A DNA stretch of 64,000 nucleotides, taken from contig CAZKMR010000001.1 in assembly GCA_964553795.1 (NCBI GenBank), forward strand, positions 19,230 to 83,229, given 5' to 3'. The notes beneath the pieces were generated by a model. It was given only the letters and a program-made list of their open reading frames with translations. It ran no database searches and had not been told where the DNA came from. This document shows positions 19,597-52,663 of this stretch, in pieces; position 1 is the stretch's first letter; each line of letters opens with the position of its first letter. The stretch comes from an uncultured Bifidobacterium sp. (GTDB lineage: Bacteria; Verrucomicrobiota; Verrucomicrobiia; Limisphaerales; JADLHS01). Made by a program: the position numbers and the translations under genes.

Positions 19597-19763
19597 GTAG
19601 CGGCGGGCATCTTGTCTGCCGTAGAGCCGGGCTTCGAGCCCGGCGGTTAAAACGAAATCACGACGGTAGCGGTCAAAGAACGCGGAAGTTATCGGTCAAT
19701 CGGTCGTCTATTCCGGGCGGCAAGATGCCGCCCTCTACGTCAGGCGCGGACGCCTGACGCTAC
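19597..19763. repeat. Array of GTAG-plus-hairpin (REP-like) units in inverted orientation
   Basis: The left side reads GTAGC[GGCGGGC ATCTTG TCTGCC]GTAGA[GCCGGGC TTCG AGCCCGGC]. The right side, read as reverse complement, is GTAGC[GTCAGGCG TCCG CGCCTGAC]GTAGA[GGGCGGC ATCTT GCCGCCC]. Confidence 0.6.
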
Positions 19764-19820
19764 TTCGCATCGCCAGAATTTGCGCTTTTGCTGGGGCGCG
19801 GAAAACTTATCCTCGCGGCG

Positions 19821-20615
19821 ATGAATCCTGTTGCTCTGATCACCGGCGCGTCGCGTGGCATCGGTCGTGGTATCGCGCTGGAATTGGCCAAGCTCGGCTA
19901 CGATCTCGTGATCAATTACGCCGGCAACGCTGAAGCCGCGCAAAAGACGGCAGGGGATTGTGTCACAGTTGCAAGCGAAGCAGGAAAAACCATTCGTGCC
20001 GAGATCTGTCAGGCGGATATTTCGGAGAGCGCCGACCGGCAGAAACTGATTTCATTCACGCGCGAGAAGTTCAATCGTCTTGATCTGCTGGTAAACAATG
20101 CCGGCGTCGCACCGAACGTGCGCGCAGATATCCTGGAAGCGGGCGAGGAAAGCTTCGACCGCCTCATTGCCATCAACGTCAAAGGCCCGTATTTCCTCAC
20201 GCAACTCGCCGCGAAGTGGATGGTTGAAGAAACGCGGAGTGCGGAGTGCGGAGTGCGGAAACCAAAAATTGTGACAGTGAGTTCTATTTCCGCTTACACC
20301 GCTTCAACAAATCGCGGCGATTACTGTGTAAGCAAAGCGGCGCTCTCGATGTTGACGCCGTTGTTTGCGGCGCGGCTTGCGGAGTACGGCATCAATGTTT
20401 ACGAAATTCGTCCGGGAGTTATCGCCACAGACATGACCGGCGCGGTGAAGGAGAAGTATGACAAACTCATCGCCGAAGGAATGACGCCGATTCAACGCTG
20501 GGGCACGCCCGAAGACATCGGTCGCGCCGTGGCAGCGATTGCGAGCGACGCGTTTCCGTTTAGTACGGGTGAAGTCATCAACGTGGACGGCGGATTTCAT
20601 TTAAAAAGATTGTAG
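19821..20615 (+). CDS. Short-chain dehydrogenase/reductase (SDR)
   Basis: [12 protein letters not shown] cofactor motif, NNAG, and catalytic S...YCVSK. The start is ATG 19821. The TAG stop lies inside the GTAG of a repeat arm. Confidence 0.85.
20234..20259 (+). repeat. Tandem heptamer GCGGAGT x3 (plus a partial copy) inside the SDR coding sequence
   Basis: Read directly: gcggagt gcggagt gcggagt gcgga, translated as RSAECGVR in a loop just before the IVTVSS strand. Confidence 0.7.
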
Positions 20616-20695
20616 GAGACGACGTAAGGAGTCTCTAACTCGACCGAATCGCGCAGAAAACTGATTGATTTGAGACTCGTCACCTCGTCTCCTAC
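20612..20695. repeat. REPIN-like inverted doublet (GTAG-GAGAC-loop-GTCTC arms)
   Basis: The left arm is GTAGGAGACGACGTAAGGAGTCTC (20612-20635). The right arm is GAGACTCGTCACCTCGTCTCCTAC (20672-20695). The arms are inverted copies with 3 mismatches. Confidence 0.65.
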
Positions 20696-23183: not shown

Positions 23184-23204
23184 TTGAAAAACAACAAGCA
23201 GCCC

Positions 23205-24275
23205 ATGAACTCAACAAAGACTTCATCCGCCGGAAGCATCAACCGCCGCAATTTTCTAGGCGCGACCACCACACTGGTTGCCGGTGCGCTGGCCGCTCCG
23301 AGTCTTGCGGCGGATCGCGACTGGAGCGGCCAACGACCGGTGCGTTATCCCGATCCCGACATCATTTCGCTCGATCCGCGCTTCAACAAATACAAGCTGG
23401 GCAACACGCCGATCCAACGACTGCATACGGGCATGTTGTGGGCGGAAGGTCCGGCGTGGAATGGCGTCGGTCGTTATCTGATGTGGAGCGATATTCCCAA
23501 CAACGTGCAATTGCGCCGGCTGGACGAAGATGGTCACGTGAGCACGTTTCGCAATCCGGCGGGAAACAGCAACGGCAACACGTTCGATTTCGAGGGACGA
23601 CAAATCAGTTGCGAGCACGGGAATCGTCGCGTGGTGCGCTATGAACCCAACGGCGGCATCACCGTGTTGGCGGAAAAGTGGAACGGCAAACCACTCAACG
23701 CGCCGAACGATGTGGTGGTGCATCCGGATGGCGGGATCTGGTTCACCGATCCCGGCTACGGCAGCATGATGAATTACGAAGGCAACAAAGGCGCGTTGGA
23801 AATCAAAGAAGCTGTTTATCGCATTGACCCCAAGACTGCGAAAATGGAATTGGTCACGGATGAATTGAGCAAGCCGAACGGACTCTGTTTTTCGCCGGAC
23901 TACCAAAAGCTCTACATCGCGGATACGGGTGCGGAGGCGCCGAAGCCGATTCAGGTTTTTGATGTGGTGGACGGCGTGAAGCTCAGCAAGGGTCGCCGCT
24001 TTTGCGCGATGGATTACAACGGCAAGAACGGCGGTGCGGACGGAATTCGCGCGGACGTTGATGGCAACATCTGGGCGAGCGCGGGCTGGGCGGGCGAAGG
24101 TTACGATGGCGTGCATGTGTTTGCGCCGGACGGCAAACGCATTGGTGTGATTCTGTTGCCGGAAATTTGCTCGAACGTGTGCTTCGGTGGCGCGAAGCGG
24201 AATCGCCTGTTCATGACGGCGAGCCAGTCGCTCTACGCGGTGTATGTCGAGACGCAAGGAGCGCATATTTGCTGA
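23205..24275 (+). CDS. SMP-30/gluconolactonase/LRE-family lactonase with a Tat signal
   Basis: Twin-arginine motif RRNFLGATTTLVAGALAAPSLAA, plus beta-propeller lactonase motifs AEGPAW, NGNTFD, PNDVVVHPDG, PNGLCFSPD and DGIRADVDGN. Confidence 0.85.
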   Translation: MNSTKTSSAGSINRRNFLGATTTLVAGALAAPSLAADRDWSGQRPVRYPDPDIISLDPRFNKYKLGNTPIQRLHTGMLWAEGPAWNGVGRYLMWSDIPNNVQLRRLDEDGHVSTFRNPAGNSNGNTFDFEGRQISCEHGNRRVVRYEPNGGITVLAEKWNGKPLNAPNDVVVHPDGGIWFTDPGYGSMMNYEGNKGALEIKEAVYRIDPKTAKMELVTDELSKPNGLCFSPDYQKLYIADTGAEAPKPIQVFDVVDGVKLSKGRRFCAMDYNGKNGGADGIRADVDGNIWASAGWAGEGYDGVHVFAPDGKRIGVILLPEICSNVCFGGAKRNRLFMTASQSLYAVYVETQGAHIC

Positions 24276-24278
24276 ATC

Positions 24279-24302
24279 GAGACTCGTCACCTCGTCTCCT
24301 AC
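24279..24302. repeat. Solo REP-like arm identical to the right arm at 20672-20695
   Basis: GAGACTCGTCACCTCGTCTCCTAC is an exact 24-nt match. A decayed partner arm may overlap the last codons of the lactonase gene. Confidence 0.55.
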
Positions 24303-32290: not shown

Positions 32291-35008
32291 GTGCAGTCGC
32301 TCGAAAACCAACTCGCCGAATTGCCGGCGCTCAATCAGGTCACCGTGCCCGACCTGTGGCAGCAGCAGGCGGTGATGGCGTTGCGCGAAGGCAAAGACGT
32401 GGTCGTGCAAGCGCCGACCGGCTCGGGCAAGACGCTGATTTTCGAGTTGTGGTCCAATCAGGGCAAGCCGCGCGGTCAGGCGATTTACACGGTGCCGACG
32501 CGCGCGTTGGCCAATGACAAACTCGCCGAATGGCGCGCGCGCGGTTGGGATGTTGGCATCGCGACGGGCGATCTCGCCGAAAACCTCGGCGCTCCGGTGA
32601 TCGTGGCAACGTTGGAGACGCAGAAGAATCGGTTGATCGCAGGTGAAGGGCCGACGCTGCTCGTGGTGGATGAATACCAGATGATCAGCGATCCGGATCG
32701 CGGATTGAACTACGAACTCGCGCTCGCGCTCGCGCCGTCGCACACGCAACTTCTGCTGTTGAGCGGCAGTGTTTCCAATCCGCATCACGTGGTGCAATGG
32801 CTGAATCGCCTCGGGCGCAAGGCCGTGTTGATACGTCACGAACATCGCCCGGTGCCGCTAGATGAAGTGTGGGCGAACAATTTGAACTTTCACGTGCCTT
32901 CGGAGATTCGCGGTTATTGGGCGCGCTTGGTCGCGAAAGCGTTGGCCGAAGACCTCGGGCCGATTTTGATCTTTGCGCCGCGCCGACAAGGCGCAGAAAG
33001 CATGGCCGCTGATCTCGCGCGCAATTTGCCCACGCCCAATCCGCTCCAACTTTCCACCGAGCAAAAACAGATTGTTGGCGAACATCTCGCGAAGATGCTC
33101 AAGAGTCGCATCGCGTATCATCACAGCGGCTTGAGCTACGCAGCGCGGGCGGGCGTGATTGAACCGCTGGCGAAGGCGGGACAATTGCGCGTGGTGGTGG
33201 CGACGATGGGTTTGGCGGCGGGCATCAATTTTTCGCTGCGCAGTGTGGCGTTGGCGGGCGAATCGTATCGGCGCGATGCCGTGGAACAGCCGCTGCGCGC
33301 GGATGAGATTTTGCAGATGTTCGGTCGCGCGGGGCGACGCGGATTGGACGAAACGGGCTATGTGTTGATCACGGCGAATGAGATTCGTTTGCTGGATGCG
33401 CGGGCGTGTCATCTGTCGCGGAGCGGCGCGGTGGACTGGAGCGCGTTGTTGGGTTTGATGCAAACGGCGGCGGAGCAGGGGAAGACGCCGTTCGCGGAAG
33501 CGGTGCGCGCGCAGGAACGCTTGTTCACGACGAAGCCGATTTTGCTGGGCGTGGAAGAATCCATGAAACATCCGGTTGTGCCGTGCGGATTGCACACGGA
33601 TGCGGAGCGCGCGCGGCACGTGCGGAAACGGCAGCGCGAGATGTTGAACAGTCGCGGTGAATGGCAGGCGTATCCGATGACGACGGAAAAGCCGTTGCGC
33701 GAAATTGTGGTGGGAGACAAGGAAACGCACAGGGGAACATCCAACATCCAAGGCTCGGCGGATGGCCATTCTTTGGGAAATAGAGCTAACTCGCAGCCGG
33801 TCGGAAATGGGCAGACAGAATATTTGCAGGACGACCACTCACCCCAAAACCGTAGCCGCCGACGTGAGGAGGCGGAGCGCTCTGCAAACGAAATGCTTCC
33901 GCCTCCTCATGTCGGCGACTACCACGAGCCGGTTTCTGCAGACAGCTCGTATGAAGCGAAGCCCACTTTTCGCTCCGTGCTCTCCGAACAAGCGGCGTTG
34001 GAAAAAGTTGGGACGGGGATGATCGTGGTTCTGGAGGAACGCGAGGACGGAACAAAAGTTTACGGTCGCGCTTCAACCGTGGCGGACGTGCTCAGCGGCG
34101 ATCGTGTGATCATCGCCAAGTGGGTGCGGCGACTGACGAATTGGAACGGTCGGCAGGCGGAGTTGAGTGTGTGGCACGAAAAAATTGCGCCGTTGCTCGA
34201 ACACAGACTCGCCGGTCAGCATACGCCGGTGGTGAAGTTCGTGAAGCAGGCGCAACGCATTCTCGTTTACGTGAGTCTCGCAGACCTGACGATGCGCGTG
34301 CCGGTGGATAATTACGGTGTGGCGATGTGGAAACCGGTCGAGCGGGAAGTGTTGCCCTACGATTGCGCGCAGTGTTCGCTGGTCGAAGTGTGCAAAACGC
34401 TGCCGACGGCGACGGGAACGGCGTTGACGTGGCGGCGTTTGAATCTCGTGGATGCGGAAGGCAAGCCGACGCTGCGCGGGCGCGTGGTGAGTTTCTTTCA
34501 ACAGGGCGACGGCTTGGCAATCGCTGCGGCGCTGGAGGATGAGCGGTATCCGTTGGACGAATTGATTTACGACATCGCGAATTTAGACGGCGGTTTTCGC
34601 TTTTGCGGCGATGAGAATCGTTATGCGGGCCGATTGGCGAATGCGTGTCACGAGAAGTTTCAATTGCTCAGCATACCCGGCTATCTCGAAAACGGGTTGC
34701 CGCCGAAATATGGTTACGGCGCGGAAGCGGTCGTGCAGAGCGTGCATAAAAATCCCGCGAGCAAACATCATTGGGTGACGGATTTGCTCGGGGCGGGGGA
34801 CATTGATCGGGCGATTATCGAGTGGCGTAGTTTACTGCGGCAAATTTCGCATGCGCCGGAACTGGAGTGGCCGCGCTGGAGCGCGTTTCAGGCGTTGGCA
34901 AAGACGACGTTGAACGAGACGGAATCGCCGACGCTAACGGAGTTACCGCGGCTGGAGTACCACCAAACGCGGCGCGTGGATCATCGGTTGATTTTGCGGC
35001 GGCATTGA
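32291..35008 (+). CDS. Superfamily-2 DEAD/DEAH-box (Ski2/HelY-like) helicase
   Basis: Motif I QAPTGSGKT, motif II VVDEYQ, motif VI QMFGRAGRRG, and a large C-terminal domain. It contains a low-complexity, repeat-bearing insert around 33720-33960. Confidence 0.85.
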   Translation: MQSLENQLAELPALNQVTVPDLWQQQAVMALREGKDVVVQAPTGSGKTLIFELWSNQGKPRGQAIYTVPTRALANDKLAEWRARGWDVGIATGDLAENLGAPVIVATLETQKNRLIAGEGPTLLVVDEYQMISDPDRGLNYELALALAPSHTQLLLLSGSVSNPHHVVQWLNRLGRKAVLIRHEHRPVPLDEVWANNLNFHVPSEIRGYWARLVAKALAEDLGPILIFAPRRQGAESMAADLARNLPTPNPLQLSTEQKQIVGEHLAKMLKSRIAYHHSGLSYAARAGVIEPLAKAGQLRVVVATMGLAAGINFSLRSVALAGESYRRDAVEQPLRADEILQMFGRAGRRGLDETGYVLITANEIRLLDARACHLSRSGAVDWSALLGLMQTAAEQGKTPFAEAVRAQERLFTTKPILLGVEESMKHPVVPCGLHTDAERARHVRKRQREMLNSRGEWQAYPMTTEKPLREIVVGDKETHRGTSNIQGSADGHSLGNRANSQPVGNGQTEYLQDDHSPQNRSRRREEAERSANEMLPPPHVGDYHEPVSADSSYEAKPTFRSVLSEQAALEKVGTGMIVVLEEREDGTKVYGRASTVADVLSGDRVIIAKWVRRLTNWNGRQAELSVWHEKIAPLLEHRLAGQHTPVVKFVKQAQRILVYVSLADLTMRVPVDNYGVAMWKPVEREVLPYDCAQCSLVEVCKTLPTATGTALTWRRLNLVDAEGKPTLRGRVVSFFQQGDGLAIAAALEDERYPLDELIYDIANLDGGFRFCGDENRYAGRLANACHEKFQLLSIPGYLENGLPPKYGYGAEAVVQSVHKNPASKHHWVTDLLGAGDIDRAIIEWRSLLRQISHAPELEWPRWSAFQALAKTTLNETESPTLTELPRLEYHQTRRVDHRLILRRH
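33852..33922. repeat. REPIN-like inverted doublet inside the helicase ORF
   Basis: GTAGCCGCCGACGTGAGGAGGCGGA (33852-33876), a 21-nt spacer, then TCCGCCTCCTCATGTCGGCGACTAC (33898-33922). The arms are complementary at 23/25 positions. Confidence 0.7.
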
Positions 35009-45942: not shown

Positions 45943-47799
45943 ATGCGTTATTGCGATTCTCCCTACGTCTTCAAACGTCGCCAGACGCGCGAGGTGGTCA
46001 TTGGCGATCCGGCGAACGGGGGCGTGATCATTGGTGGCGATCATCCAGTGGTCGCACAATCCATGATCACCTGCGACACGATGGACACGGCGGCGAGCGT
46101 GCAGCAAACGCTTGATCTCGTCGCGGTCGGTTGCCAGATCGTGCGCATCACCGCGCCAACGGTGAAGGACGCGGCGAACTTGCAGAACATCGTGGCGGAA
46201 TTGCGCCAGCGCGGTTGCAACGTGCCGATTGTCGCGGACATTCACTTCAAACCCGAAGCCGCGATGGAAGCGGTGAAATGGGTGGAAGTCATTCGCGTCA
46301 ATCCCGGTAACTATGCCGACTCCAAGAAATTCGCGATCAAGGAATACACCGACGAGCAATACGCGGCGGAGCTGAAGCGGATTGAAGAAAAGTTCACGCC
46401 GCTCGTGCTCGAGTGCCTGAAGCTCAAGCGCGCGATGCGCATCGGCACGAACCACGGTTCACTCAGCGATCGCATCATGAATCGCTACGGCGACACGCCG
46501 TTGGGAATGGTCGAAAGCGCGCTGGAATTCGCCCGCATCTGCCGCAAGCACGACTTTCACAACTTCAAGTTCTCGATGAAGTCGAGCAATCCGAAGGTGA
46601 TGATTGAGTGTTATCGCCTATTAGTGGCGCGGCTGGAACAGGAAGGACCGGATTGGAATTATCCGATTCACCTCGGCGTCACTGAAGCCGGCGAAGGCGA
46701 GGATGGACGCATCAAGAGCGCCATCGGGATCGGCTCGCTATTGTGCGACGGCTTGGGCGATACGATTCGCGTTTCGCTGACGGAAGATTCGCCGCGCGAA
46801 ATTGAAGTCTGCCGCGATTTGCTCGCGCAGATTCCGTTGCTCGCCAATACAAAGACCAGCATTGCGGAAACGAGTTTTCCCTTTGATCCCTTTCACTTCG
46901 AAAAGCGACAGACGCCCGAGATTGAACTGAACGAACAAGTCAAATGCGGCGGCGAACAACTTATCCGCGTCGTCGTCACCAGAGCGACCTGGGACAAAGT
47001 CGCGCCGAAGATTCGTCCCAAGGACGATGTAAAACCCGAAGCGGTTTACGAGGATTTGAACGTTGCGGAGCTTGATCCGACTCAAGACTTCGAAATCAAC
47101 TGCGACACGCAACTGGTCACCGTGAAGGACGGCGTGAATTTGCCGGCCATCACGGCGTTTCGCTTGTTGGTCGCTAAATTGAAGCGGCTGGGTCGCAAGA
47201 ATCCCATTTTGCTGAAAGATTGTCTGGGATTCGGTGGTAGCCGCCGAGGTAACGAGGCGGACACTTCGATTGGCAAGAATCCGCCTCCTCACGTCGGCGG
47301 CTACGAAGTTCTTGAGCCGAAGATCGCTTTGCTTCGCGCCTCGGTAGTCATCGGATCATTGCTGGCGGATGGCATCGGCGATGCGATTCTCGTTCGGGGC
47401 GAATCGGGTGCGGGCCAAAGTCTGCGGCTCGCGTATAATATTTTGCAGGCGGCGGGTTGCCGCAGCTTCAAGACGGATTACGTCGCTTGCCCGAGTTGCG
47501 GTCGCACATTGTTCAATCTCCAGACCGTCACCGCGCGCATCAAAGCGCGCACGGAACATCTCAAGGGCGTGAAAATCGCCATCATGGGTTGCATCGTAAA
47601 TGGTCCGGGCGAAATGGCGGATGCGGATTTCGGTTACGTTGGCGGCGCGCCGGGCAAAATCAATCTCTACGTCGGCAAAACTCCGATCAAGTTCAACATC
47701 CCCGAAGCCGAAGCGGTGGAGCGGCTCGTGGATTTGATTCGCGAACACGGCAAGTGGGTTGAGCCGGAAGTCGAATTGGCGAAAGTAGAACAGTCGTAA
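45943..47799 (+). CDS. ispG: 4-hydroxy-3-methylbut-2-enyl diphosphate synthase, long form
   Basis: VRITAPT, IVADIHF, IRVNPGN, a C-terminal ACPSCGRT ... GCIVNGPGE Fe-S motif, and a large internal domain typical of long-type IspG. The start is ATG 45943. Confidence 0.9.
   Translation: MRYCDSPYVFKRRQTREVVIGDPANGGVIIGGDHPVVAQSMITCDTMDTAASVQQTLDLVAVGCQIVRITAPTVKDAANLQNIVAELRQRGCNVPIVADIHFKPEAAMEAVKWVEVIRVNPGNYADSKKFAIKEYTDEQYAAELKRIEEKFTPLVLECLKLKRAMRIGTNHGSLSDRIMNRYGDTPLGMVESALEFARICRKHDFHNFKFSMKSSNPKVMIECYRLLVARLEQEGPDWNYPIHLGVTEAGEGEDGRIKSAIGIGSLLCDGLGDTIRVSLTEDSPREIEVCRDLLAQIPLLANTKTSIAETSFPFDPFHFEKRQTPEIELNEQVKCGGEQLIRVVVTRATWDKVAPKIRPKDDVKPEAVYEDLNVAELDPTQDFEINCDTQLVTVKDGVNLPAITAFRLLVAKLKRLGRKNPILLKDCLGFGGSRRGNEADTSIGKNPPPHVGGYEVLEPKIALLRASVVIGSLLADGIGDAILVRGESGAGQSLRLAYNILQAAGCRSFKTDYVACPSCGRTLFNLQTVTARIKARTEHLKGVKIAIMGCIVNGPGEMADADFGYVGGAPGKINLYVGKTPIKFNIPEAEAVERLVDLIREHGKWVEPEVELAKVEQS
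47237..47304. repeat. REPIN-like inverted doublet inside the ispG ORF
   Basis: GTAGCCGCCGAGGTAACGAGGCGGA (47237-47261), an 18-nt spacer, then TCCGCCTCCTCACGTCGGCGGCTAC (47280-47304). The arms are complementary at 22/25 positions. Confidence 0.7.
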
Positions 47800-48797: not shown

Positions 48798-49526
48798 ATG
48801 AGCGAACCTAGCGAATTCAGCGACAGCGGTCAGCCGATTTATCGGCATACGGAGCGAAAGCGGGAATTTGAGTTCGCTGCCGGCGACGAACAAAGCATCG
48901 AACTTATTTCGGATCACATCGAGAAACATCTCGGCACTCCGGCGACGGTGTTTCACGAGTTGATTTCGGATCTCGTCCATATTGACGTTCATATCATAGC
49001 GCCCACTGAGGAGCGGCCGTTTTATTCGCTGATCACCTCGGGGATGAGCGACAAACCGATGAATGCCCCGGAAGGAGCCGAGGACTTGCGGTACGCCGAA
49101 TTGATGATTTGTCTTCCGCCTGACTGGCCGATGACGCAAGAAGAATGGAAGAAAGACCAGGATAGTTTCTGGCCGATCCAGTCGCTGAAATTTCTCGCCC
49201 GGTTTCCGCATGAATACGATACCTGGCTTTGCCTTGATCACACCGTCCCGAATGGCGACCCGCCCGAACCATTCGGAAACACCGAATTCTGTTGCGCGAT
49301 GCTGGGCGGCTGCGCCACAGCGCCGCAGGAGTTCTGGCAACTGAAGGTCAGTGAGGATAAAACCATCAACTTCTTCGGGTTATACTTCCTTTATCGCGAA
49401 GAGATGGATTTGAAGATGAAGAAAGGTGCGGAGGCGCTTTGGGAGCTGTTGGAGAAAAGCAACGTGACCGAATTGCTGGACGTCTCGCGCAAGAATACGG
49501 CGAAAAAACGATTTGGAATATTTTAG
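48798..49526 (+). CDS. SUFU-like (suppressor-of-fused family) domain protein
   Basis: HIDVHIIAPTEERPFYSLITSGMSDKPM..AELMICLPPDWP...WPIQSLKFLARFPHEY matches my memory of the bacterial SUFU/Imm-SUFU domain pattern. Confidence 0.6.
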   Translation: MSEPSEFSDSGQPIYRHTERKREFEFAAGDEQSIELISDHIEKHLGTPATVFHELISDLVHIDVHIIAPTEERPFYSLITSGMSDKPMNAPEGAEDLRYAELMICLPPDWPMTQEEWKKDQDSFWPIQSLKFLARFPHEYDTWLCLDHTVPNGDPPEPFGNTEFCCAMLGGCATAPQEFWQLKVSEDKTINFFGLYFLYREEMDLKMKKGAEALWELLEKSNVTELLDVSRKNTAKKRFGIF

Positions 49527-49534
49527 TGCCTCGG

Positions 49535-50992
49535 ATGCCTCTTCCCGATTTGATCGAAATCATCCCGCTCGACGAGCCCGTGCGCGCGGAGATCACCGTG
49601 CCTGGTTCGAAGAGCATCACGAATCGCGCGCTCATTCTCGCGGCGCTGGCGGATGGTGAAGTGACGTTGACGGGCGCGCTGTGGAGTGAGGATACGCAGG
49701 TGATGACCGAGGCGTTGCGAACGCTCGGATTCGACGTGCGCGTGGAGAATGATCCGGCGGAGTTTTGTAATCGGACGATTACGGTCAAAGGGCAGGGCGG
49801 ACGGATTCCCAAAGCAGGCACGGCGGAAAAGCCGCTGGAGCTGTTTGTGGGCAATGCGGGTACAGCAGCGCGGTTTCTGGCGGCGCTGGTTTGTTTGGGC
49901 AACGGCGTGTATCGGTTGAGCGGCGTGCCGCGGATGCACGAACGTCCGCAGGCGGAATTGTTCAAGGCGTTGCGCGAACTTGGCTATCGCGTGGAGACAC
50001 CGAACGAAAAGTTGCCGGCAGTGATTTTTGGCGAAGCGCCGGAGCGCGGCTCTGTGAGCCGCAGCGATTCGGCCACGCCGGAGGCTTCCATTGATTCTGG
50101 ACGTGAAAAAGCTGACGAGAGCGCTGCGGGTCGCAGACCCGCGCTCCGGAAGCGCAGTTGCACCGTCAGCATTTCGGAAAGCTCGCAATTTGCCTCGGCG
50201 CTGTTGCTCGCGGCGAAGCATGGTGGATGGGAAGTGAAGATTGCCGGTGATGATGACGAGGAAGCGCCGTATGTAGTAATGACCCAACGATTGATCGAAT
50301 CGTTTCCCAAACGTGGAGGTCGTTTTCAGATTGAGCCGGATGCATCCAGCGGCAGTTATTTTTGGGGCGCGGGCTGGTTGGTTACAGTGAAATGGTGGCT
50401 GGGTGCTCCGGTTGAGGAACTAGGTCCGGAGGGTTCGCCGATTTGGGTAAAGGCGTGGCCGAAATCTGGCTGGCAAATTGATGCGGCATTTCCCGATTTC
50501 CAGCCTTGGCCGGAAAGTATTTCGCGTGAAGGTCAGTTGGCTGACAGCATCATGACTGCGGTGGTGTTGGTCGCAGACCGGGAAAGTGCAGTTGATTGTT
50601 ATCTTGAGCCTCGTGCGGAGATGAAATTCACCGAACTTGGCCGGTTGCGCGTGCAGGAATGTGAGCGCGTCGTTGCTTTGCGCACGGAGTTGACCAAGTG
50701 CGGAGCAAAAGTGGTTGAAGAAGGCGACACGTTGACGGTTTACCCCTCCGATCTGCACGGCGCGGAGATCGAGACCTACAACGATCATCGCATGGCCATG
50801 TGTTTTGCGATTCTGGGATTGAAAGTGCCGGGGATAAAAATCAAGAATCCCGCGTGCGTGAAGAAGACGTTCCCCAATTTTTTCCAGAAACTCGCCGCGC
50901 CGCCACCCAATGGATTGGGCGTGGAGATTTGGGAAATTAAGGACGCCCAACGGACACGGAAATTGGAAGGTGAAGATTTGTTTGCGGACTGA
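49535..50992 (+). CDS. aroA: 3-phosphoshikimate 1-carboxyvinyltransferase (EPSP synthase) with an in-frame repeat-derived insert
   Basis: PGSKSITNRALILAALA, LFVGNAGTAARFL, MHERP, SSQFASALLL, DHRMAMCFAILGL and VKKTFPNFF. The start is ATG 49535. Confidence 0.9.
   Translation: MPLPDLIEIIPLDEPVRAEITVPGSKSITNRALILAALADGEVTLTGALWSEDTQVMTEALRTLGFDVRVENDPAEFCNRTITVKGQGGRIPKAGTAEKPLELFVGNAGTAARFLAALVCLGNGVYRLSGVPRMHERPQAELFKALRELGYRVETPNEKLPAVIFGEAPERGSVSRSDSATPEASIDSGREKADESAAGRRPALRKRSCTVSISESSQFASALLLAAKHGGWEVKIAGDDDEEAPYVVMTQRLIESFPKRGGRFQIEPDASSGSYFWGAGWLVTVKWWLGAPVEELGPEGSPIWVKAWPKSGWQIDAAFPDFQPWPESISREGQLADSIMTAVVLVADRESAVDCYLEPRAEMKFTELGRLRVQECERVVALRTELTKCGAKVVEEGDTLTVYPSDLHGAEIETYNDHRMAMCFAILGLKVPGIKIKNPACVKKTFPNFFQKLAAPPPNGLGVEIWEIKDAQRTRKLEGEDLFAD
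50040..50148. repeat. Nested-hairpin inverted repeat (GGAGCG-frame family) inside the aroA ORF
   Basis: CGGAGCGCGG-CTC-TGT-GAG-CCGCAGCG (left) ... CGCTGCGG-GTC-GCA-GAC-CCGCGCTCCG (right). The arms are near-identical to those at 22297-22370. Confidence 0.7.
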
Positions 50993-51005: not shown

Positions 51006-51084
51006 GTTGAAAGTTGAAGGTTGCAAGTTGGCAGAGAAACGTCGCGGGTAAATCACCTGCAACTTGCAACCTTCAACTTGTAAC
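51006..51084. repeat. Long inverted repeat (about 28-bp stem) built of GTTGNAA heptads, between aroA and cmk
   Basis: The left arm is gttgaaagttgaaggttgcaagttggcag (51006-51034). The right arm is ctgcaacttgcaaccttcaacttgtaac (51057-51084). The loop is 22 nt. Confidence 0.65.
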
Positions 51085-52399: not shown

Positions 52400-52458
52400 G
52401 GCCTCGGCGAGTAAACGGGTGTGATTAAAAGTGGGTGAGGCGCGGCGCAGATCATTGT

Positions 52459-52568
52459 GGAGCGCGGACGGTCTCCGTCCGCAGCGCGCCGCCAGCACGA
52501 CCCGCAACGAATTTGTCCGAGCCACCTTTTCCTGTCCCTGCGCTGCGAGCGGGGACCGCTCGCGCTCC
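52459..52568. repeat. Nested-hairpin inverted repeat (GGAGCG-frame family), intergenic
   Basis: GGAGCGCGG-ACGG-TCT-CCGT-CCGCAGCG ... CGCTGCG-AGCGG-GGA-CCGCT-CGCGCTCC. The outer frame matches the aroA and 22297 copies, but the inner stems differ. Confidence 0.6.
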
Positions 52569-52663
52569 AGCAGATCCCGACACTCACTTTTAATTGCATC
52601 CCACCACAACAGTCTTCAAGGAAATGTATTTTCCAATCGGATGGCGGTTCGTAAGCTACGCCG

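Follow-up and report, generated by a model that had tools for sequence, protein, structure and literature searches.

The helicase doublet and its host gene

Within the window, by which we mean the whole stretch of 64,000 nucleotides analysed, a helicase gene is crossed by an inverted pair of short GTAG-tagged repeats, and a second such pair lies within ispG (Table 1). A single unbroken frame of 905 codons runs through the helicase copy, and the protein is kept across Verrucomicrobiota on either side of the insert, each of the 120 homologues being one protein of 829–1056 aa that includes both halves. The doublet itself, 71 nt in length, is in frame with the product RSRRREEAERSANEMLPPPHVGDY. Behind its tag the left arm has a hairpin of its own, made of the stem CCGCC (33856–33860), GA, C, the loop GTGA, G, GA and the stem GGCGG (33871–33875), followed by A, and is read as (R)SRRREEA in the helicase frame; the right arm is read as LPPPHVGDY. 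The two arms are complementary at 23 of 25 positions (92%), the exceptions being one C·A mismatch and one G·T wobble, and the preliminary description of inverted arms at 33852–33922 around a 21-nt spacer is exact in both sequence and coordinates.

Table 1. Copies of the repeat and associated features, in positions of the window
Feature	Position	Strand	Remarks
SF2 DEAD/DEAH-type helicase gene, 905 aa	32291..35008	+	Pfam DEAD 1.2e-20, Helicase_C 4e-06
Hypervariable inter-domain linker, aa 473–560	33707..33970	+	holds the REP doublet; from orthologue comparison
Left REP arm	33852–33876	+	GTAGCCGCCGACGTGAGGAGGCGGA; exact match to window sequence
GTAG tag of left arm	33852–33855	+	precedes the arm's own hairpin
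Spacer, 21 nt	33877–33897	+	encodes ERSANEM; differs among doublets
Right REP arm	33898–33922	-	TCCGCCTCCTCATGTCGGCGACTAC; left-arm unit on opposite strand; 2 transitions relative to consensus
Second in-frame REP doublet, in ispG ORF 45943..47799	47237..47304	+	arms 47237–47261 and 47280–47304
Third copy, stem variant GAGAC/GTCTC	20612..20695	+	intergenic
Fourth copy	24242..24302	+	left arm degenerate, right arm intergenic

The 83-nt helicase region is predicted to fold with −51.8 kcal/mol as RNA (z −8.7 against shuffles) and with −28.7 kcal/mol as DNA (z −6.6 against shuffles). Nothing in Rfam 15 reached gathering thresholds when the whole window and the helicase region were scanned, the sole matches being generic hairpin matches to miRNA models, far under threshold. 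Intein, intron and integron attC readings of the element were considered and rejected.

Orthologue comparison places the doublet in a linker whose length and content vary widely among helicases of 75–90% identity, from 12 aa with no hairpin (L202) to about 130 aa (P0069). The same linker is occupied by the palindromic family GGAGCGCC in L203, by the family CCCTCACCC..GGGTGAGGG in L204 and by a different GTAG doublet in L205, and P0069 carries an independent copy of the query's own family stacked with two other families. P0069 is also the one exception among the 119 other close homologues (the 120 closest were compared), the remaining 118 being without the query's insert, and the segment is not conserved as protein in the closest orthologue, P0002 (88% identity), where no equivalent peptide was found. 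Because the linker is hypervariable and carries other palindromic families elsewhere, the earlier view of this inter-domain stretch as a hotspot of repeat accretion is well founded, and its first estimate of 33720–33960 lies near the limits that the orthologues give. Two smaller observations of the preliminary description survive in weak form: the stretch is AT-richer (GC 0.55–0.60) than the sequence upstream (0.62–0.65) but hardly so than that downstream (0.55–0.62), and the micro-repeat amounts to 2.3 trivial copies of AACATCC (33736–33751, TRF score 32).

Since the linker DNA of the closest orthologue (L201) aligns uninformatively and provides no clean empty site, we infer both the boundaries of the helicase insertion and its origin in a single event. 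In the AF2 model, aa 478–555 have pLDDT below 50 and are flanked by confident blocks, a weak sign that the linker may be disordered, as the helicase model is poor overall (pLDDT 56).

The ispG doublet and other copies in the window

The product of the second host gene matches GcpE (Pfam, 1.6e-122), and its doublet, which translates as SRRGNEADTSIGKNPPPHVGGY, is a heterodimer with the inner pair G-C in the left arm and C-G in the right arm. A formal alignment with MAFFT keeps the helicase and ispG arms aligned, with unrelated spacers, and thereby upholds the proposal that the arms are the same repeat and that one DNA element gives a near-identical peptide to two unrelated proteins.

In ispG the insertion is an old one, vertically inherited and common to many orthologues. 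More than 50 of them keep the doublet peptide, and those that keep the peptide also keep the DNA palindrome, while about 20 close orthologues are without any insert at the site. Across species the arms are 94–98% identical (94–100% at third codon positions), as against 55–61% at the third positions (synonymous sites) of the host gene across the same species and 48–52% for the doublet spacer among orthologues. A purely passive passenger would not be expected to show such conservation of its arms, unless gene conversion or re-insertion acts. In some orthologues the family is present a second time, elsewhere in ispG, and is read there as VAADVRRL..SLLTSAAT; between lineages, at least eight different palindromic families occupy the helicase linker and the 'FEPVPLE' loop of ispG.

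A search of the window with the arm, allowing up to three mismatches, returned exactly four copies, two in the helicase and two in ispG, and none in 100 shuffles. With the two further copies in Table 1 the window holds four doublets in 64 kb, or about 11 arms per 100 kb, the tag being GTAG in seven of the arms and GTAT in the degenerate left arm at 24242. These two copies touch the ends of genes: the TAG (20613–20615) in the GTAG of the third is the stop codon of an SDR gene (19788..20615), and the left arm of the fourth supplies the last 11 or so codons of an SMP-30/gluconolactonase-like gene (23184..24275).

A repeat family of the Verrucomicrobiota

A scan of a genome collection located the family at at least 120 loci, nearly all in Verrucomicrobiota MAGs and in many species, with the arm consensus GTAG + N5-GA-S-GTRA-S-GA-N5, a unit of 24–25 nt, inside the span of about 20–40 nt usual for REPs, with a 5-bp stem, tandem GA/GA and one inner pair. 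Across 83 distinct arms there is no variation at G1, T2 or G4 and conservation of at least 90% at A3, figures that partly reflect ascertainment, the tag having been in the search pattern. The hairpin covaries in the same 83 arms: all six pairs have changed on both sides, the covariation score is 0.431 against 0.149 when shuffled (none of 500 shuffles as high), and 84.9% of hairpin cells are paired against 65.4% in shuffles. Inverted doublets number 49 by the strict pattern and 81 unique with a relaxed loop, and include homodimers and heterodimers. Their spacers, of 10–128 nt but mostly 17–38 nt, are unrelated in sequence and differ in every copy, unlike those of recently amplified REPINs, which move as one unit. 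No target-site duplication was found, as matching flanks occur in 0 of the 81 doublets at k=4 and in 2 of 81 at k=3, where 1.3 are expected.

The family is abundant between genes and is also frequent in frame within them. For 55 of the 146 elements sampled, the reading frame stays open over 50 codons or more to either side, and Pfam domains mark each of the ten such ORFs tested as a bona fide gene, the in-frame hosts being ArgJ, UvrB, UvrA, CarB, IleRS, ValRS, AcrB, MmeI-type and Eco57I-type methylases and a cytochrome. Intragenic arms use all five stop-free frames (sense phases 13 and 19; antisense phases 10, 4 and 12), and the peptide is therefore a by-product of the reading frame that is not selected for. 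Judged by eye from the coordinates, the lengths of intragenic doublets modulo 3 form no single class, so that the exact ends of the insert do not follow from length. The family is thus not predominantly extragenic, both focal copies and a quarter to a third of the sampled copies being intragenic; this weakens the word 'extragenic' but leaves the assignment to the REPs unaffected, because exceptions of like kind have been published (PMC3733652).

Association with RayT genes

Members of the family directly flank a gene for RayT, the REP-associated HUH/Y1 tyrosine transposase, at seven of the seven loci examined (L021, L073, L206, L208/210, L211, L212/213 and L214/215), with the nearest arm 3–250 nt away from the six complete genes, and where single arms stand on both sides they are inverted (L208/L210, L212/L213 and L021). 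The first lead was a tblastn search with a sequence of E. coli YafM, the match then being verified independently. Pfam gave no match to the candidate L021:935-1561 at E 0.01, Y1_Tnp included, and its identity is accordingly taken from a match to E. coli TnpArep (PDB 4ER8, E 8.5e-05) that takes in both the HUH motif (PDHIHLVW) and the Y motif (YVLMNPVKDG), and from the names of its 1362 homologues, many of which are called 'REP element-mobilizing transposase RayT' by JGI. No RayT gene was found within the 64-kb window, and the evidence for a cognate RayT comes from related genomes.

Comparison with known repeats

GTAG-tagged REPs with RayT transposases were reportedly described by Nunvar in 2010. 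The present family resembles such GTAG REP/RayT systems in its imperfect palindrome of 24–25 nt with a 5' GTAG tag, in its frequent inverted doublets with variable spacers (homo- and heterodimers), in stem sub-families that differ by compensatory changes, in repeats that flank RayT genes (REPtron) and in having no target-site duplication. These systems include REPs, REPINs and BIMEs together with RayT, or TnpA_REP (Bertels & Rainey 2011, PMC3116915; Ton-Hoang/Messing 2012, PMC3479197; Di Nocera 2013, PMC3733652). It differs from the published GTAG REPs in being a sequence family of its own (stem N5, GA/GA, one inner pair, GTRA loop), in a comparison with the text of the 2013 paper, in being common to many species and genera of Verrucomicrobiota and not to one species group, in its high intragenic share, and in a RayT clade that falls under the Pfam Y1_Tnp threshold at E 0.01. 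Neither the family nor the RayT clade that accompanies it in Verrucomicrobiota had been characterised before.

The basic phenomenon of in-frame REPs in Verrucomicrobia was already published in 2013. In that paper in-frame GTAG REPs are described, the largest number of them in the verrucomicrobium Opitutus terrae, where monomers and dimers of families GTAG-17 to -20 (Additional file 3) add about 7–30 aa in frame to hosts that include helicases, UvrA and tRNA synthetases, and flexible linkers or loops are suggested there as the places that take up such insertions (Di Nocera et al. 2013, PMC3733652). Our repeats share with these the phylum and the occurrence of in-frame monomers and dimers in known proteins, but the repeats and peptides differ (VGPALAAG is one example from O. 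terrae), as does the order, here Pedosphaerales/Limisphaerales-like MAGs. What is added is orthologue evidence, with empty and filled sites and with the same loops holding different repeat families.

Palindromic elements of Rickettsia (RPE) were reportedly found by Ogata et al. in 2000 in frame in many unrelated functional protein genes, with the peptide tolerated, and the RPE-1 elements are about 100–150 bp long. A palindromic repeat in frame in unrelated genes, with a tolerated peptide segment, is common to both; our repeat is shorter than RPE-1, belongs to a different phylum and has the tag GTAG in place of CGTC, on which ground membership in the RPE or CGTC-tagged REPs was rejected. We know of no RayT association of the REPtron kind for RPE. 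The short RPE-4 and RPE-6 have been classed as CGTC-tagged repeats (PMC3733652). Bacterial MITEs such as Nezha, Correia/NEMIS and ERIC, which also occur in frame in genes (PMC10969869, PMC3184786), are likewise small, non-autonomous palindromic repeats that are sometimes inside ORFs. They have IS-derived terminal inverted repeats and a target-site duplication, whereas the repeat in Verrucomicrobiota has no such duplication in 81 doublets and ends in self-folding GTAG hairpins, and membership in the MITEs was rejected.

Discussion

Because family members flank RayT at every one of the seven loci, we interpret the 71-nt element as a REP doublet of REPIN/BIME architecture, a substrate of the Verrucomicrobiota RayT clade, that landed in a tolerant helicase linker and whose peptide is passive; we put the probability of this reading at roughly 0.85. 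By analogy with the IS200/IS605-RayT mechanism, RayT would recognise the GTAG tag and the hairpin on single-stranded DNA and would move or copy the repeat unit, leaving no target-site duplication. One RayT event in the source genome would have put the doublet into the linker that separates the helicase core from the C-terminal domain and that tolerates changes in length, where translation would continue through the hairpin and the insert would be neutral, with RSRRREEA...PPPHVGDY as its passive read-out. The insert may have survived because five of the six arm frames are stop-free (only that of G-TAG is closed) and because the linker probably accepts almost any sequence. The ispG copy probably goes back to an earlier insertion of this sort, into a surface loop.

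REPs are normally extragenic and AF2 gives low confidence across the linker, as would fit a non-coding region (two genes, or a pseudogene, with an ordinary extragenic REP between) or a palindrome due to chance or assembly. We regard this as next to negligible, given the uninterrupted frame and the homologues, 120 of 120 of which are single proteins; chance is rejected by the shuffles, and an assembly artefact by independent assemblies in which ten verified housekeeping genes contain the family in frame. It is very improbable, too, that both proteins gained PPPHVG[GD]Y as a module with a function in the protein, such as a proline-rich docking motif, with the palindrome secondary. The retention of the peptide in ispG orthologues and the reading frame that the arms share in the two genes would agree with a module, but across genes translation of the arms makes use of every one of the five open frames, in either orientation, the second ispG site gives a different peptide, close ispG orthologues do without the insert, copies of the repeat are plentiful in intergenic DNA and stand beside RayT genes, and the conserved synonymous positions of the arms imply a constraint on DNA, not on peptide.

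That constraint, the very stable RNA hairpin and the position of the helicase copy exactly at a domain boundary could instead mean that the hairpin is kept for a role in RNA or DNA, such as a translation pause, mRNA stability or an RNase site, or protein binding, with its REP ancestry incidental. We consider this unlikely: the helicase copy is lineage-specific, orthologues function with hairpin-free linkers of 12 aa (L202), unrelated palindromes fill these loops in other lineages, and gene conversion from the numerous copies elsewhere in the genome, or re-insertion, could explain the conservation of the arms equally well. A terminator in particular was rejected, there being no T-run. Set beside the REP doublet as a passive insertion is a more tentative extension, which we hold possible but do not favour, namely that REPs are not mere passengers and that active REP-to-REP replacement or homing, or RayT-driven gene conversion, possibly with selection on the hairpin, makes them a self-renewing source of linkers in essential proteins. 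Loops that hold at least eight palindromic families, and arms of 94–100% identity against diverged synonymous sites and spacer, fit replacement, homing or gene conversion.

The puzzle of a peptide shared by two unrelated enzymes is thus explained by a translated mobile REP doublet, and for annotation PPPHVGGY, SRRREEA, SLLTSAAT and VAADVRRL signal REP insertions, not domains. The empty, filled and differently filled orthologous sites in ispG and the helicase form a natural series, usable to test the re-targeting of old REP sites by REPs and the homogenisation of arms. If replacement or homing does occur, REPs would be a systematic, self-renewing supply of linker sequence in essential proteins.

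The same repeat in the helicase and ispG genes

The preliminary description had proposed that one DNA element gives the same peptide to the helicase and to ispG. The helicase doublet was confirmed in sequence as described there, its arms being complementary at 23 of 25 positions, and a search of the 64-kb window allowing up to three mismatches returned four arm copies, two in this doublet and two in a second one within ispG/GcpE, against zero in the shuffled window sequence. Both doublets are in frame, the first within a 905-codon ORF (32291..35008) with DEAD and Helicase_C domains, and they encode RSRRREEA…PPPHVGDY (helicase) and SRRGNEA…PPPHVGGY (IspG). In a formal alignment of the two elements the arms stay aligned and the spacers are unrelated, which supports the proposal: the arms are the same repeat, and one DNA element supplies near-identical peptides to two unrelated proteins.

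Each arm is a self-folding tagged hairpin: the GTAG tag is followed by a 5-bp stem (CCGCC/GGCGG), GA facing GA, a single inner pair and a GTRA loop. The arms fall into two types with the inner pair exchanged, C…G (GACGTGAGGAG) or G…C (GAGGTGACGAG). In the helicase doublet both arms are of the C…G type (a homodimer), and in the ispG doublet the two types are combined (a heterodimer). The left arm in the helicase is identical to the right arm in ispG, and the right helicase arm carries two transitions. As a single strand, the helicase doublet region is predicted to fold into a long hairpin, both as RNA (-51.8 kcal/mol, z -8.7) and as DNA (-28.7 kcal/mol, z -6.6).

Repeat features of the window, with positions in window coordinates
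Feature	Position	Sequence or family	Location or basis
Left arm, helicase doublet	33852-33876	GTAGCCGCCGACGTGAGGAGGCGGA	sequence read directly
Spacer, helicase doublet		21 nt	between left and right arms
Right arm, helicase doublet	33898-33922	TCCGCCTCCTCATGTCGGCGACTAC	sequence read directly
Two arms, ispG doublet	47237-47261; 47280-47304	focal family	ispG/GcpE
Doublet	20612-20695	stem GAGAC/GTCTC	relaxed-pattern search
Doublet	24242-24302	stem GAGAC/GTCTC	relaxed-pattern search
Hairpin cluster	19597-19760	other GTAG-tagged hairpins, e.g. GTAGCGGCGGGCATCTTGTCTGCCG, TAGAGCCGGGCTTCGAGCCCGGC, GTCAGGCGCGGACGCCTGACGCTAC	between ABC-2 permease and SDR genes
Heptamer array	20234-20259	GCGGAGT x 3.7	inside SDR (short-chain dehydrogenase) ORF 19788..20615
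In-frame inverted repeat	50039-50149	other family, CCGGAGCGCGGCTCTGTGAGCCGCAGCG / CGCTGCGGGTCGCAGACCCGCGCTCCGG	aroA (EPSP synthase; ORF 49439..50992)
Intergenic doublet	51006-51084	GTTG...CAAC	between aroA and cmk
Intergenic doublet	52458-52569	GGAGCGCGG type	between acyltransferase gene and purK

The arm is free of stops in five of its six reading frames, G-TAG alone being closed, and all five open frames are in use (sense phases 13 and 19; antisense phases 10, 4 and 12), with SRRREEA, VAADVRRL, PPPHVGGY, SLLTSAAT and ASSRRLL as recurrent peptides. A second doublet of the family, at residues ~302-325 of the IspG orthologues P0122, P0163, P0195, P0203 and P0224, is read in a different frame (VAADVRRL…SLLTSAAT); the equivalent window site (about 46840-46900) is empty, with no insert. 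Since five frames are used and the second ispG site is read in another, the peptide is a by-product of the DNA repeat.

Other repeats of the window also touch coding sequence. The SDR gene has as its stop codon the TAG of the tag at 20612-20615, and a degenerate left arm (24242-24275) codes for the last ~11 residues of an SMP-30/gluconolactonase-like gene. A third housekeeping gene with an in-frame inverted repeat is aroA, where the repeat encodes ...GEAPERGSVSRS...AAGRRPALRK and the Pfam EPSP_synthase match falls into two stretches. The GTAG hairpin cluster indicates that the genome holds several REP families. The GCGGAGT heptamer repeat recurs within REP-doublet spacers of two unrelated genomes (L062 3754-3799; L119 7408-7453).

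Host sites in orthologues

The linker bounded by …EKPLREI and RSVLSEQAALEKVG is 12 to about 130 residues long in an alignment of 120 helicase homologues (73-100% identity). At the DNA level the shortest linker (L202, encoding P0013; 12 residues) is without a hairpin, and loci of other genomes hold a palindrome GGAGCGCC…GGCGCTCC (L203), the CCCTCACCC…GGGTGAGGG family (L204) or a different GTAG doublet, GTAGCACGGGCCTCCGGCCCGT (L205); in homologue P0069 an independent copy of the focal family is stacked with two others. This range of lengths and palindromic families bears out the earlier suggestion of a repeat-accretion hotspot, of which the accompanying details hold weakly: the AT-richer stretch is a small drop in GC (0.55-0.60 versus 0.62-0.65 upstream) and the micro-repeat a heptamer in 2.3 copies. 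In the AF2 model, poor overall, residues 478-555 have pLDDT < 50 and lie between two confident blocks. Within the 120 closest homologues the focal family occupies this linker only in the query and P0069; it is lacking in the closest orthologue, P0002 (88%), whose linker gave no usable DNA alignment with that of the window. This distribution points to a lineage-specific, relatively recent arrival of the helicase copy in a segment that appears to accept almost anything.

The ispG doublet occupies the same position in most of the 120 closest homologues (85-92% identity), the loop is short and 'empty' (C[IL]xFEPVPLE) in about 20, and others carry different inserts there, nearly all of them palindromes at the DNA level as well. 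They comprise stem variants of the focal family (L124, L137), other GTAG or GTGG doublets (L131, L140, L163), single GTAG REPs (L173, L200) and the GGAGCGCGG (L129), GTTGGAGTTCA (L141, L145) and CCCCTCACCCC (L123, L127, L138) families. Across lineages (L121-L200), this four-codon loop FEPVPLE (window 47221-47316) holds at least eight palindromic insert types; the two intergenic doublets of the window have relatives here, the GGAGCGCGG type in L129 and GTTG...CAAC in L141/L145. At L131 the PVPL of the loop is encoded by the right REP arm itself (CCCGTGCCACTAC; empty site CCCGTTCCGCTGG), which may point to microhomology, or to replacement in place of a simple insertion.

Distribution of the family and its association with RayT

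When one genome per species was scanned with a partly degenerate pattern, at least 120 loci matched, and those listed are almost all from Verrucomicrobiota MAGs (Pedosphaera, Limisphaerales, Verrucomicrobiia and others); Rfam has no family matching the repeat. In a set of 83 distinct arms drawn from many genomes, part of whose invariance is ascertainment owing to that pattern, all six hairpin pairs are changed on both sides (stems including CCGCC/GGCGG, GAGAC/GTCTC, GAGCC/GGCTC, CAGCC/GGCTG, GAGTC/GACTC and GAAAC/GTTTC), with a covariation score of 0.431 versus 0.149 in shuffles (0/500 as high; slid controls <=0.09). Inverted doublets whose outer ends carry GTAG are frequent among the matches listed, and their spacers (10 to 128 nt) are not conserved in sequence. 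Of the 146 elements in the listed loci, 55 have a frame that stays open for 50 codons or more in both directions and 37 one that does so for 100 or more, and all ten spanning ORFs tested (ArgJ, UvrB, UvrA, CarB, IleRS, ValRS, AcrB, MmeI- and Eco57I-type enzymes and a multihaem cytochrome) show strong Pfam domains before and after the element. Location inside genes is a trait of the family as a whole.

Between focal-family arms at L021 lies a 208-aa ORF whose match to E. coli TnpArep (PDB 4ER8; E 8.5e-05) spans the HUH and catalytic-Tyr motifs. Its homologues number 1362 at E ≤ 1e-10, and JGI labels many of them 'REP element-mobilizing transposase RayT'. The repeats flank a RayT gene at every locus examined (L021, L073, L206, L208/L210, L211, L212/L213, L214/L215), the nearest arm being 3-250 nt from the six complete genes; single arms on both sides (L208/L210, L212/L213, L021) are inverted, and a GTCA loop variant occurs at two loci. 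The arrangement in these related genomes is that of a REPtron, which defines REP-RayT systems; the 64-kb window contains no RayT gene. At L211 (2001-2648) a RayT gene with flanking REP doublets has as its immediate neighbours pnp (PNPase) on one side and the window helicase's orthologue on the other.

Identity of the element

GTAG- and CGTC-tagged REP superfamilies were defined by Di Nocera, De Gregorio and Rocco (BMC Genomics 2013; PMC3733652), who reported homo- and heterodimers with variable spacers, REPtrons, different REPs occupying nearly the same position in Xanthomonas recB, and in-frame dimers encoding 20-30 residues in Opitutus terrae genes, including those for helicases, UvrA, ligase and tRNA synthetases, and suggested that such inserts occupy flexible linkers or loops. 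The focal element differs from their GTAG REPs in sequence family and host order and agrees with them in all other respects tested. We rejected an RPE, which belongs to the CGTC class, and also a MITE, as there is no target-site duplication, none being found in 81 unique doublets (L001-L215 and the window). The flanks of these doublets favour C at -1 (51/81) and G at +1 (43/81), which may mean a unit one base longer or a target preference; AACC immediately precedes GTAG in 12 of the 81, the helicase copy included. The explanation that we consider highly probable (about 0.85) is a REP doublet that belongs to a RayT-associated GTAG family and lies in frame in a permissive linker.

Compared between the window (47237-47304), L121 (5297-5376) and L122 (2155-2234), the ispG arms are 94-98% identical (third positions 94-100%), far above the host gene (79-82%; third positions 55-61%) and the spacer (48-52%). 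This excess would reflect either constraint at the nucleotide level, homogenisation against the genome's other copies, or re-insertion. Of residual interest are this excess conservation of intragenic arms and the fact that many palindromic families have re-used the same protein loops.
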